Virus record (IMG/VR): IMGVR_UViG_2737471843_000003
Span: 1-14,020 of that record
DNA from: a virus
Taxonomy: Duplodnaviria; Heunggongvirae; Uroviricota; Caudoviricetes
DNA: 14,020 nt
Strand: one strand, 5' to 3'
Positions 570 to 11,906 of the stretch are shown here, piece by piece. The notes under the pieces were generated by a model, which worked only from the letters and a program-made list of their open reading frames with translations, made no database searches and was not told the DNA's origin. The translations under genes and the position numbers were made by a program. Positions within the stretch are counted from its first letter, which is position 1. Each line of letters opens with the position of its first letter.

Positions 570-603
570 GACCGAATACAGGAATCGTATTCGGTCTTTT
601 TTT
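570..603 (+). terminator. Intrinsic terminator of SdsR
   Basis: GACCGAATAC (570-579), loop AGGAATC, GTATTCGGTC (587-596), then TTTTTTT (597-603). Read directly from the sequence. Confidence 0.75.
581..603. other. Putative attL core, the last ~23 bp of sdsR
   Basis: A tyrosine integrase gene ends 130 bp downstream. The terminal 23 bp of ryeB/sdsR has been reported as a recurrent phage attachment site in Salmonella and E. coli. The exact crossover cannot be determined from one junction. Confidence 0.4.
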
Positions 604-6926: not shown

Positions 6927-6957
6927 GCCTGCACAGTGTGCAGGCTTTCTTTTTTTC
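6927..6957 (+). terminator. Perfect hairpin with T-run in the racC-recE intergenic region, terminator-like only on the plus strand
   Basis: GCCTGCACA (6927-6935), G, TGTGCAGGC (6937-6945), then TTTCTTTTTTT. On the minus strand, which is the operon strand, the hairpin is preceded by an A-run and has no U-tail. Confidence 0.35.
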
Positions 6958-8790: not shown

Positions 8791-9180
8791 TTAGGAGGAT
8801 TTTTTCTGTTGCCTGCTTCTTAGATATTTTTCCACATACTCATCAAGCTCTTGAAGACGGATTTCGAACAGATCAATCATGCGTGCTTGTTCCGATCCTG
8901 GGAGCTGATTAAACAGTTCTAGCATTTTTTTCTGGTTATCATTTAACCACGAGTAAGTGTTTTCCTGTTCACCGAACATTAATTCTGCGGGGGAAATGCC
9001 TAGTACCTGGCCGAGGATGATCGCATCCTCAGCCCCCACACTCCTGGTGCCAGCTTCGTAGTTAGCAATACGAGAAGAACCTGACCAACCACATAGTTTT
9101 GCCAGGTTTCCCATACTTAATCCTCGATTTAGGCGAGTGGCTTTTAGTCGCTCGCCTATTTGTTCTGCAATGGTTTTCAT
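8791..9180 (-). CDS. XRE-family HTH prophage repressor (cI/RacR-like), 129 aa
   Basis: Track ORF 8791..9285. The HTH region is LSMGNLAKLCGWSGSSRIANYEAGTRSVGAEDAIILGQVLGISPAEL. I prefer the ATG at 9180; the track start at 9285 is a TTG that would overlap the ydaS start. The gene is divergent from the Cro-like gene. Confidence 0.8.
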   Translation of the reverse strand: MKTIAEQIGERLKATRLNRGLSMGNLAKLCGWSGSSRIANYEAGTRSVGAEDAIILGQVLGISPAELMFGEQENTYSWLNDNQKKMLELFNQLPGSEQARMIDLFEIRLQELDEYVEKYLRSRQQKKSS

Positions 9181-9274
9181 AGCTCCGATTTTATCACGAT
9201 GTGTGAAATTAGCGGTACTCACATATCTGTAGTTGATCTTGCTCACGAAATGTGAATAATAGAAACAGGAGGTA
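9181..9274. promoter_or_regulatory. Divergent promoter/operator region with three operator-like sites at ~24-bp spacing
   Basis: TCACGATGTGTGA (9194-9206), CTCACATATCTGTAG (9218-9232, half-site match) and TCACGAAATGTGA (9243-9255). Rightward promoter: TTGATC (9233-9238), 16 bp, AATAAT (9255-9260). Leftward -10 TAAAAT (plus 9188-9193) sits 7 nt from the repressor ATG. Confidence 0.6.
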
Positions 9275-9277
9275 ATG

Positions 9278-9520
9278 ATGAACAAAATTTCAACATATCG
9301 AAAACAGCTTGGGCTGTCTCAAAGACAACTTGCTGTTCAGTTAGGGTGGATACAAAGCCGACTGGCAAATTACGAAGCAAATTTTCGTACCCCTGGGCTA
9401 GAGGAGTGCAGAAAAATTGTTTCTACCCTTAATCGGCTTGGCGCTCATTGTGGACTTGACGATGTATTCCCCCCAGACGGTAAGCATAGCGAAAACAGCA
9501 TAGGAGCGGTTGATTCATGA
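9278..9520 (+). CDS. ydaS: Cro-like HTH protein, YdaS-like
   Basis: Track ORF 9275..9520. AGGAGG at 9267-9272 favours the ATG at 9278. The HTH region is LGLSQRQLAVQLGWIQSRLANYE. It is the first gene of the rightward operon and its stop overlaps the ydaT start (ATGA). Confidence 0.7.
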   Translation: MNKISTYRKQLGLSQRQLAVQLGWIQSRLANYEANFRTPGLEECRKIVSTLNRLGAHCGLDDVFPPDGKHSENSIGAVDS

Positions 9521-9939
9521 AAATCAGGCATGAGCATATCGAATCAGTGTTGTTGGCCCTGGCAGCCGAAAAAGGGCAGGCGTGGGTCGCTAACGCAATT
9601 ACTGAAGAATATCTGCGCCAGGGGGGCGGCGAATTGCCCCTTGTACCAGGCAAGGACTGGAACAATCAGCAGAATATCTATCACCGTTGGTTGAAAGGTG
9701 AAACGAAAGCGCAAAGGGAAAAAATTCAGAAACTGATCCCTGCGGTTCTGGCAATTCTTCCGCGCGAGCTGCGTCACCGACTCTGCATCTTCGATACCCT
9801 GGAACGCCGTGCATTACTGGCGGCGCAGGAAGCGTTGAGTACGGCAATTGATGCGCATGATGATGCAGTCCAGGCCGTTTACCGGAAAGCACATTTCAGC
9901 GGTGGTGGGTCGCCCGGCGATTCTGTCGTAGTGCATTGA
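9517..9939 (+). CDS. ydaT: YdaT-like protein, 140 aa, reported as a toxic prophage protein
   Basis: ORF track 140 aa. I recognise the sequence MKIRHEHIESVLLALAAEKGQAWVANAITEEYLRQGGGELPL as Rac YdaT from memory. It is translationally coupled to ydaS. Confidence 0.75.
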   Translation: MKIRHEHIESVLLALAAEKGQAWVANAITEEYLRQGGGELPLVPGKDWNNQQNIYHRWLKGETKAQREKIQKLIPAVLAILPRELRHRLCIFDTLERRALLAAQEALSTAIDAHDDAVQAVYRKAHFSGGGSPGDSVVVH

Positions 9940-9983
9940 TTGAAATTAATCGTGCCGGATTGTTTTGTTCGGTATCAGTTAAA

Positions 9984-10004
9984 TGTAACGCTGCGAGCGT
10001 TACA
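9984..10004. promoter_or_regulatory. Perfect 21-bp palindrome 12 bp upstream of the ydaU-like start codon
   Basis: TGTAACGCT-GCG-AGCGTTACA with 9-bp perfect arms, read directly. The same core recurs inside the downstream gene. Confidence 0.45.
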
Positions 10005-10016
10005 AGGTGAAAACAA

Positions 10017-11153
10017 ATGGCTTCAAACTGGATAAAGCTCGAGGTTATTACGCCGGATAAGCCGGAAATATTCAGGCTTGCTGAGATTCTGAATATTGAT
10101 CCAGATGCCGCATTAGGGAAGGTTATTCGCTTCTGGGCATGGGCGGATCAACAAATGATAGACGGTAATGCAGATTGTAACGCTCGCGGCGTTACAAAAA
10201 GTGCAATAGATCGCATCACTTTTATGGCTGGTTTTGCTGATGCGTTAATTCAGGTTGGATGGCTGGTCGAAAATGACGGTGGGCTTTCTCTACCTAACTT
10301 TGAACGTCATAACGGAAAAAGCTCTAAAAAACGGGCGGTTACAAACGAGCGAGTTACAAAAATACGCGAACTGAAACGAAAAGGTAACGCTGGCAGCGTT
10401 ACACAAACGGATCAAAAAGCGTTACCAGAGGAAGAGGAAGAGGAAGAGGAAGATCTAAATACTGATCTAACCCATCCCAAACCCTTCCCTTCCGGAAGGG
10501 AGTTTCGGGATTTTGTGGCTGGAGTGCTTGAGGGGAGATTATCTGGCGGTACTGCAGCGGAATTTTGTAATTCTGCGGTGGTGGCGTTGCAGGCCGCTGG
10601 CCTGGATGTCTGTCGTGAGTATCCGGTACCAGAGCGTGGAGACGGTTGCGGAGGTCGGATTGATATCGTCGTGACTGACAGGAACGGTGTCCGGTGTGGG
10701 ATCGAACTTGACCGAAATTCTCCACGACAAAAATCACTGCTCAAAATCGGCGCTGTTGAAACCGGGATATGTGTCTTGCGGCGCAGTGATATCGCAAGGC
10801 ACACCGAGCAGGGAATTCTGGTTATCGGTGGGGCTGTTCGCCAGAAAAAATTTGACCCGTTGTCAGTTGATCTGCCCGACTGGTTGCCAGAAACACTCTG
10901 GCATGAGTGGGTCCAGTTCAGGCAGGCATTGCGAAAACCGATTCGAACGGAGCAGGGCGCTAACGGGGCGATACGGGAACTGGAAAAATTCCGTCAGCAG
11001 GGGTTTACACCTGAGCAGGTGATTCGACACAGCATCGCCAATGAATACCAGGGCCTGTTCGCGCCGAAAGGTGTTCGGCCTGAGACGTTGCTCCGACAGG
11101 TTAACACCGTCTCGTTGCCGGACAGTGCGATCCCGCCAGGCTTCAGGGGGTAA
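10017..11153 (+). CDS. ydaU: Replication initiator / replisome organiser, YdaU-like, with a poly-Glu linker and an extra central domain
   Basis: ORF track 378 aa. The N-terminus MASNWIKLEVITPDKPEIFRLAEILNID...VIRFWAWADQQ resembles the DUF1376 N-terminal pattern of lambdoid initiators. It sits just upstream of the DnaC-like gene. It is longer than the 285-aa K-12 YdaU as I recall it. Confidence 0.75.
   Translation: MASNWIKLEVITPDKPEIFRLAEILNIDPDAALGKVIRFWAWADQQMIDGNADCNARGVTKSAIDRITFMAGFADALIQVGWLVENDGGLSLPNFERHNGKSSKKRAVTNERVTKIRELKRKGNAGSVTQTDQKALPEEEEEEEEDLNTDLTHPKPFPSGREFRDFVAGVLEGRLSGGTAAEFCNSAVVALQAAGLDVCREYPVPERGDGCGGRIDIVVTDRNGVRCGIELDRNSPRQKSLLKIGAVETGICVLRRSDIARHTEQGILVIGGAVRQKKFDPLSVDLPDWLPETLWHEWVQFRQALRKPIRTEQGANGAIRELEKFRQQGFTPEQVIRHSIANEYQGLFAPKGVRPETLLRQVNTVSLPDSAIPPGFRG
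10176..10425. repeat. Iteron-like array of GTTACA-core repeats inside the initiator gene, candidate ori
   Basis: TGTAACGCTCGCGGCGTTACA (10176-10196); direct GTTACAAA half-sites at 10338-10345 and 10353-10360; palindrome GTAACGCT-GGC-AGCGTTAC (10384-10402); half-site AGCGTTAC (10418-10425). A-rich stretches lie between them. Confidence 0.45.
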
Positions 11154-11159
11154 CAGACC

Positions 11160-11906
11160 ATGAAAAATATTGCGACAGGAGGCGTTCTGGAGCGTATCCG
11201 CAGACTGACCCCACCACATGTAACCGCCCCATTCAGAACGGTTGCGGAGTGGCGCGAGTGGCAACTTGCTGAAGGGCAGAAACGTTGCGAGGAGATCAAC
11301 CGCTTGAATCGTCAGTTGCGGGTGGAAAAAATCCTGAATCGCTCTGGCATCCAGCCGTTGCACCGCAAATGTTCGTTTGCGAATTACCAGGTGCAGAACG
11401 ACGGCCAGCGATACGCGTTAAGCCAAGCGAAATCCATCGCCGATGAACTGATGACCGGGTGTACAAATTTTGCGTTCAGCGGAAAACCTGGTACCGGGAA
11501 GAACCATTTAGCGGCAGCTATCGGGAATCGCCTGCTGAAAGACGGTCAGACAGTGATTGTGGTTACCGTGGCTGATGTTATGAGTGCCCTGCATGCCAGC
11601 TATGACGACGGGCAGTCAGGCGAAAAATTTTTGCGGGAACTGTGCGAAGTGGATCTGCTGGTTCTTGATGAAATTGGCATTCAGCGCGAGACGAAAAACG
11701 AGCAGGTGGTACTGCACCAGATTGTTGATCGCCGGACAGCGTCGATGCGCAGCGTGGGAATGCTGACAAACCTGAACTATGAGGCCATGAAAACATTGCT
11801 CGGCGAGCGGATTATGGATCGCATGACCATGAACGGCGGACGCTGGGTGAATTTTAACTGGGAGAGCTGGCGTCCGAATGTCGTCCAGCCAGGAATTGCG
11901 AAGTAA
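11160..11906 (+). CDS. ydaV: DnaC/IstB-like AAA+ helicase loader, YdaV-like
   Basis: ORF track 248 aa. Walker A motif [15 protein letters not shown] and Walker B LLVLDEIG are present. It lies immediately downstream of the initiator gene. Confidence 0.85.

Follow-up and report, generated by a model that had tools for sequence, protein, structure and literature searches.

Directly in front of its replication initiator gene, this tailed-phage sequence carries an inverted repeat whose core returns inside the gene itself. The initial annotation saw in this the binding of a single protein at both places, which would allow autoregulation of initiator expression, or else a transcription attenuator hairpin. 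Which protein recognizes the upstream repeat, and does the repeat serve the control of a gene, the replication origin, or the transcript? We looked for answers in the window, meaning the whole stretch of 14,020 nucleotides analysed here, and in related loci from bacterial genomes and viral contigs. The features of the region are collected in Table 1.

Three dyads at the 5' end of the initiator gene

The upstream element, TGTAACGCTGCGAGCGTTACA, had been described as a perfect palindrome of 21 bp. This holds for its arms, as the repeat finder returned two arms of 9 nt each (9984-9992 and 9996-10004), 100% complementary and 3 nt apart. Strictly, however, the element is a 9+3+9 inverted repeat, TGTAACGCT-GCG-AGCGTTACA, with an asymmetric centre, in which the GCG is not self-complementary and the flanking A/A do not pair. 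The two half-sites are 12 bp apart from start to start, around a variable 5-bp centre, TGCGA. The dyad sits in the 77-nt gap between the stop of the YdaT-family gene (9939) and the initiator ATG (10017), and the distance of 12 nt from its end to this start codon was confirmed. The arrangement at the Shine-Dalgarno sequence, ACA-A/G-GTGA-N-ACAAA-ATG, is also found in the viral contigs L149, L164 and L170.

Half-sites of the type GTAACGC/GCGTTAC recur in a 12-bp register. Relative to the initiator start, they are located at -32 and -20 (the upstream dyad), at +148 (degenerate), +160 and +172, at +334 (degenerate), and at +367, +379 and +402. The window thus holds three dyads of the same sequence (9984-10004, 10175-10197 and 10384-10402), with centres at -23, +169 and +376, about 200 bp apart. 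The centre of intragenic site 2 is 192 bp away from that of the upstream dyad, which is a 95% inverted copy of this site over 22 nt (repeat finder).

Could such a palindrome have arisen by chance? A single inverted repeat with 9-bp arms is expected 0.56 times per 14-kb window, and at least one was found in 38% of the simulated windows. On the other side stands the exact 8-mer GCGTTACA/TGTAACGC, with five copies in 14 kb, at 9984, 9997, 10176, 10189 and 10396. Its expected number is 0.42 per window and only 0.012 in the 420 bp (9984-10403) which hold all five, and one-mismatch copies follow at 10351, 10383 and 10419. The clustering of all exact copies in this interval bears out the earlier statement that the palindrome and the intragenic repeats have a common core. 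In addition, the upstream dyad recurs in unrelated intergenic contexts. Three like dyads in 420 bp, together with their conservation in other genera, are far beyond chance, and a chance palindrome is extremely improbable. Three further perfect inverted repeats with 9-bp arms are present in the window (571-595, 979-1004 and 6927-6945), with sequences unrelated to the iterons.

The intragenic half-sites encode the peptides CNARGVT (site 2), GNAGSVT and ALP. We compared synonymous positions in 16 initiator genes from different genera, with 50-75% protein identity. Inside the cores, the third codon positions were 100% conserved in 7/7 codons, against a mean of 0.51 in the 89 other codons for conserved residues (Mann-Whitney P = 1.7e-5). 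This difference in synonymous conservation, 100% vs 51%, indicates that the intragenic cores are real DNA elements. In the predicted structure of the initiator, the core-encoded peptides fall in low-confidence loops, which fits a sequence dictated by the DNA and not by protein function.

Synonymous conservation extends beyond the dyads. Codons 132-142 (CAA AAA GCG TTA CCA GAG GAA ...; 10414-10453), spanning the last half-site together with the (GAR)n tract, hardly vary at synonymous positions from genus to genus, and these codons include a six-fold one for Leu. The functional heart of the origin is probably formed by this half-site and the all-purine tract. The AT skew reaches 0.5-0.66 over 10310-10460, with the GC content still at 0.42-0.47, and we infer that the (GAR)n tract is a candidate unwinding element. 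DnaA boxes were not found near the origin region.

Distant members of the N-domain family keep the cores at the same positions. In some of them the core is changed at both intragenic clusters together, to GTAACGG (L123, L131, L134, L144 and L267-L271), GTTGCGC (L159) or GTAGACG (L187), and the encoded peptide shifts too, from GNA to GNG to GCA. These joint changes look like co-evolving protein-site pairs, and the relatives carrying them form a natural series for reading the recognition code of the initiator family. None of the altered-core clades has the upstream dyad, which leaves no case in which upstream and intragenic sites could be seen to change together.

Table 1. Features of the initiator region, in coordinates of the window
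Feature	Position	Strand	Details
HTH repressor gene	8791-9285	-	lambdoid immunity/replication region
Cro/YdaS-like HTH gene	9275-9520		lambdoid immunity/replication region
YdaT-family gene, CII analogue	9517-9939	+	family match
Upstream dyad iteron	9984-10004	.	half-sites GTAACGC 9985-9991 and GCGTTAC 9997-10003
Shine-Dalgarno AGGTG (10005-10009) and spacer to start codon	10005-10016	+	abuts dyad directly
Replication initiator gene, 378 aa	10017-11153	+	PHROG 2509/6451/678 (replication initiation)
Intragenic site 2	10165-10196	.	degenerate GTAATGC 10165-10171 and dyad TGTAACGC-TCGCG-GCGTTACA 10176-10196
Two degenerate direct half-sites (cGGTTACA, GAGTTACA)	10336-10357	+	encode AVTNERVT
Intragenic site 3	10384-10425	.	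dyad GTAACGC-TGGCA-GCGTTAC 10384-10402 and half-site GCGTTAC 10419-10425
(GAR)n all-purine tract, 27 nt	10427-10453	+	encodes poly-Glu linker; adjoins last iteron; synonymous sites conserved
DnaC-like helicase loader gene	11160-11906	+	PF01695, NF009043, PHROG 50

The initiator and the distribution of the upstream dyad

The N-domain of the initiator (aa 1-150) matches PHROG 2509, "replication initiation protein", and is predicted to be winged-helix-like. The C-terminal part matches primosomal/O-like PHROGs, and the PHROG 678 'O-like' hit is confined to it. At E <= 5, Pfam returned no family for the whole initiator or its parts, save one weak match to an inserted segment. With 7,630 cluster representatives at E <= 1e-3, the N-domain family is large. 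It is not covered by a Pfam model, and the literature searched yielded no experimental paper on it. The C-terminal domains differ among the initiators of relatives.

The name "ydaU-like", given in the initial annotation, suits one end of the protein. The last 102 residues are 89% identical to K-12 YdaU, and in BLASTP only initiator residues 277-378 align, with YdaU residues 184-285. The N-terminal 150 residues, however, are unrelated to DUF1376, and PF07120 (DUF1376) gave no hit in the initiator. The gene order is that of ydaT-ydaU-ydaV (oriJ) in the K-12 Rac prophage, and the end of YdaT, the C-terminal 102 residues of YdaU, and YdaV/YdaW are homologous. In contrast to the initiator studied here, K-12 YdaU has a DUF1376 N-domain, and its gene is separated from ydaT by 12 nt without a GTAACGC dyad, as compared with the 77-nt gap and dyad here. 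The GCGTTAC half-site is absent from the 641 nt of K-12 which run from the end of ydaT into ydaU, and the homology to K-12 Rac stops exactly at the ydaT stop. The dyad follows the N-domain module of the initiator, and K-12 Rac, with another N-domain, has none.

The neighbourhood also includes a gene for a DUF1627/YdaW protein. Of 5,426 complete E. coli genomes, 694 contain the same region with an identical palindrome. It also occurs in isolated phages, for example vB_EcoS-666R9, in which the initiator is annotated as "DNA replication protein O".

Several other characteristics of the locus were noted. Right after the poly-Glu/(GAR)n tract, the initiator has an in-frame insertion of about 115 aa (aa ~150-275; ~10467-10862). 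This insertion is scarce, with the 378-aa form found in 6/80 close viral loci, and it matches PHROG 1347 (unknown function). A weak Pfam match to REase_MTES_1575 (E = 0.24) and the motif RIDIVV...ELD may point to a PD-(D/E)xK nuclease-like domain; for the insertion, single-sequence structure modelling reached a pLDDT of 49, too low to be of use. Farther upstream, the YdaT operator consensus TTGATT-N6-AATCAA is matched at 9510-9527 with one mismatch, at the ydaS/ydaT junction, where CP-933P has its footprinted OM site (PMC9986795). A second match, with two mismatches, overlaps the ydaT stop at 9936-9953, 30 bp upstream of the palindrome. Since two operators fit on one YdaT tetramer, a loop of ~430 bp is conceivable. 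Inside the minus-strand repressor ORF (8791-9285), on the plus strand, lies a strong terminator-like hairpin (9130-9158; a 13-bp stem, then TTTGTT), just upstream of a predicted rightward promoter at 9233-9260.

How widely is the upstream dyad kept? Nine of the 16 non-E. coli loci, all from one-genome-per-species contigs, carry GTAACGC-N5-GCGTTAC 12-24 nt before the initiator ATG, in non-coding DNA. These loci belong to six genera: Winslowiella, Serratia, Erwinia, Mixta, Yersinia and Pantoea. The dyad is also present in the viral contigs L149, L150, L156, L157, L164, L169 and L170. When 15 distinct loci were aligned on the dyad centre, the majority-base fraction was 0.99 at the 14 core positions, 0.65 in the 5-bp spacer and 0.52 in the flanks. 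The genes upstream of the dyad differ (YdaT, several unrelated small ORFs, a 157-aa ORF), and the flanks are unalignable. Similarly, among E. coli loci more than 95% identical to each other, the arms are fixed in all but one haplotype and the spacer has at least five forms. Such fixed arms around a free spacer are the signature expected of a protein site with two half-sites. The spacer (9992-9996; L020-L099) was found as TGCGA, TTACA, TGTGA, TCACA, TGCAA and CGCGA, often differing by multi-base changes. Three loci (L010, L150 and L156) have three to four upstream half-sites, in the same 12-bp register and in the minus-minus-plus order of site 2.

The upstream dyad is absent from 7/16 genome loci, and in six of these seven the upstream ORF ends no more than 7 nt from the ATG or overlaps it. 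Family members of the Klebsiella/Salmonella type, and nearly all of the non-enterobacterial ones, have the intragenic sites but not the upstream dyad. As many relatives keep only the intragenic sites, the upstream dyad is accessory, and the core origin can do without it. Judged by its sequence record, the upstream element is a genuine dyad iteron, conserved and accessory.

Other elements were seen in front of the initiator genes of relatives. In L101-L128, which are relatives from gut metagenomes, a different conserved element, AACTACAACCCCCAACTGACGCTTTTTTGAT, replaces the dyad ~40 nt before the initiator ATG. In L160, L176, L190, L200 and L202, three iteron-like half-sites occur between -110 and -81 in an 11-12 bp register (at -110/-99/-87 in L160 and L190). 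They lie within the coding sequence of a small upstream Zn-ribbon-like gene (ERYVGNGACVTC), and they may be functional sites or a coding coincidence.

Where both are present, the distance between the centres of the upstream dyad and site 2 varies by lineage, being 182, 192-193 or 202-204 bp, in steps of ~10.5 bp. These steps keep the helical phase and are consistent with looping, with only three to four independent classes and a rough P of ~0.09.

Binding, transcription and the role of the upstream dyad

The proposal that one protein recognizes both the palindrome and the intragenic repeats is supported by several lines of inference. They share a half-site of 7-8 bp and its 12-bp register. Across genera, the dyad tracks the N-domain of the initiator, while upstream genes and C-terminal domains change, and it is missing from K-12 Rac. 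Its arms are invariant while spacer and flanks drift. Half-sites that stay invariant while spacer and flanks vary freely, that are identical to the repeats of the origin and that are linked to a single DNA-binding domain argue for an initiator binding site, and we consider it likely that the initiator binds the upstream dyad.

Host factors were considered as well. TyrR recognizes TGTAAA-N6-TTTACA, and the boxes of LacI/CcpA-type regulators likewise resemble the dyad. A site of the TyrR or LacI/CcpA type was rejected, as the spacing differs, with TGTAAC-N9-GTTACA here.

If the initiator binds, what would it control? A window scan found no sigma-70-like promoter at 9940-10016, keeping in mind that consensus scans can miss weak promoters, and a scan of the 15 dyad-bearing loci found no promoter-like site at a consistent position. 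With no promoter at the dyad or conserved nearby, the plasmid-style picture, in which an operator overlies the rep promoter, has no anatomical support. The initiator gene is most simply read as part of a rightward operon starting from ~9233-9260, and a roadblock or loop at the upstream dyad is possible. A weak leftward promoter-like sequence of the E. coli type, TTCACC-18-TACATT (8/12), is present on the minus strand at 9982-10011, with the palindrome exactly in its spacer. Its place corresponds to that of lambda pO. The sequence lacks conservation in other genera, and downstream of it no leftward terminator turned up.

Our preferred reading, a tentative one with somewhat less than even confidence, is that the upstream dyad is an accessory iteron, bound by the initiator, which gives feedback on the expression of the initiator and helicase loader, and that its role is not purely replicative. 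Two winged-helix-like N-domains would bind GTAACGC and GCGTTAC, 12 bp apart, as at the intragenic dyads. Once accumulated, the initiator would occupy the dyad and dampen the rightward (pR-type) transcription into the initiator gene, the loader gene and the origin. A loop to the identical dyad, which lies 192 bp farther down on the same face of the helix, would probably reinforce this damping. The outcome would be a negative feedback on initiator supply during assembly of the origin complex. In lambda, it matters how much pR transcription reaches the origin. An excess impairs initiation, and the convergent promoter pO, in the cII-O gap, moderates this transcription (PMC3985674). By analogy with pO, a bound and looped initiator would do the same job here, and add negative feedback on the initiator and loader genes. 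Against feedback, the intragenic dyads could already be roadblocks, in which case the upstream dyad adds little. A bolder version, which we regard as unlikely, has the three dyads as helically phased anchors of one looped initiator-DNA complex, enclosing the ribosome-binding site and the 5' half of the gene, so that assembly equals shut-off of the operon. If true, it would be a replication-coupled expression switch, in which a protein roadblock replaces the transcriptional cross-talk of lambda pR/pO.

The upstream dyad could instead be a purely replicative accessory iteron, which nucleates, stabilises or limits the origin complex, by looping or wrapping with the dyads at +169 and +376 or by handcuffing. 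Its sequence and geometry are identical to those of the origin dyads, the three lie ~200 bp apart with a phase-preserving spacing between the upstream dyad and site 2, and there is no promoter to control. Extra iterons that are weakly bound, yet needed, are known from the origins of Stx phages (PMC7466680). In the wider family, however, the core origin works without an upstream dyad. Moreover, the dyad always lies directly before the ribosome-binding site, a weak argument because this is the only non-coding DNA available. We judge a purely replicative role to be a serious possibility, but on balance rather doubtful. A different origin for the dyad is suggested by its spacers. In L150, L156, L157 and L169 the upstream dyad and site 2 are the same down to the spacer, and in near-identical E. 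coli loci the spacers change by multi-base steps to those of other dyads. This pattern suggests conversion or template switching between dyads, with an excess of spacer matches that was marginal in a permutation test (P ~0.05). Together with the break of K-12 Rac homology exactly at the ydaT stop, it could mean that the dyad is a non-functional by-product, either copied by duplication or gene conversion, or marking a recombination joint of the origin module, and kept by conversion instead of selection. But the half-sites are intact in six genera in which every flanking base has diverged, and they have retained their position and helical phase with respect to site 2, which makes a by-product quite unlikely.

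As to the transcript, the palindrome is predicted to fold into a stable local 9-bp hairpin of -11 kcal/mol (z = -3.3), and similar hairpins are predicted for the dyads of relatives. Abutting the Shine-Dalgarno sequence on its 5' side, it could act as an attenuator, pause site, mRNA stabiliser or translation modulator, independently of the initiator, and in L150 and L156 a further half-site overlaps the Shine-Dalgarno sequence and could pair alternatively. The folding itself thus agreed with the initial annotation, but the features of an attenuator were missing. The terminator scan called none at the palindrome, where the stem is followed by AGGUGAAAACAAAUG and not by a U tract, and Rfam returned noise-level hits only. 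The arms never covary across genera but stay identical to the DNA iteron core, which a role in RNA alone does not explain, and where relatives have an intergenic gap but no dyad, a hairpin of this kind is missing (z ~0). We therefore see no support for an attenuator, and an initiator-independent RNA element of any kind is very unlikely. Any transcribed palindrome folds, and side effects on the mRNA may occur.

Relation to known systems and meaning

The module resembles the origins of lambda and the Stx phages. As there, a helicase-loader gene comes after the initiator gene, repeated and internally symmetric sites, here putative ones for the initiator, lie inside the initiator coding sequence, in a region for flexible linkers, and a strand-asymmetric tract, here a candidate unwinding element, follows the sites (PMC7466680, PMC3985674). 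Unlike in lambda, the N-domain here is not of the lambda O family (no Pfam hit; PHROG 2509), the loader is DnaC-like and not P, and the sites form three clusters ~200 bp apart, one of them outside the gene, instead of one contiguous array. The module thus seems to work like lambda O-P, with the origin in the gene, yet its initiator is not a member of the O family. The upstream dyad also shares the position of lambda pO/oop, in the gap between the genes for the CII analogue and the initiator (PMC3985674). There, however, lambda has a convergent promoter, and the phage studied here a putative protein-binding dyad.

Feedback on initiator supply through inverted repeats is best compared with the iteron plasmids. 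Autoregulatory inverted repeats of this kind accompany the initiators RepA of pSC101 and pi of R6K. Likewise, the F RepE dimer binds inverted repeats of the iteron sequence between promoter and ORF, and represses its own gene (PMC13028717). As in these plasmids, an inverted repeat of the iteron sequence is located just upstream of the initiator ORF. The plasmids differ in that no promoter is detectable at the dyad here, the protein is not a Rep_3-type initiator, and the origin sites, like the upstream site, are dyads with the 12-bp geometry, so that there is no division here between monomers on direct repeats and dimers on inverted repeats. The upstream dyad therefore resembles the Rep operators in position and composition, but fails in promoter overlap and in a distinct site architecture.

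In lac (O1-O2) and gal (OE-OI), an auxiliary operator and a site within the coding region are brought together by looping. The similarity lies in having one site before the gene and an identical one ~190 bp inside it, at distances changing in steps of about one helical turn. In contrast to lac and gal, the partner sites here belong to a putative replication origin, and the spacing is compatible with a loop.

Searches of an incomplete literature for ydaU/oriJ, the half-site and lambdoid iterons found no paper on this initiator family or its palindrome. A link between the origin and initiator supply is described for iteron plasmids, and none was found for lambdoid phages in the literature searched. 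As a modest variant of a familiar theme, the finding extends a known principle to a new family and layout, without overturning the current understanding. For experiments and for the annotation of prophage origins, the conserved GTAACGC dyads provide a ready-made recognition code, and work on the replication of Rac-like prophages, be it study or engineering, gains a compact candidate operator in the upstream dyad. The module also occurs in many Enterobacterales prophages. If the initiator binds the dyad, this widespread module would have a built-in link between the assembly of its origin and the supply of its initiator.
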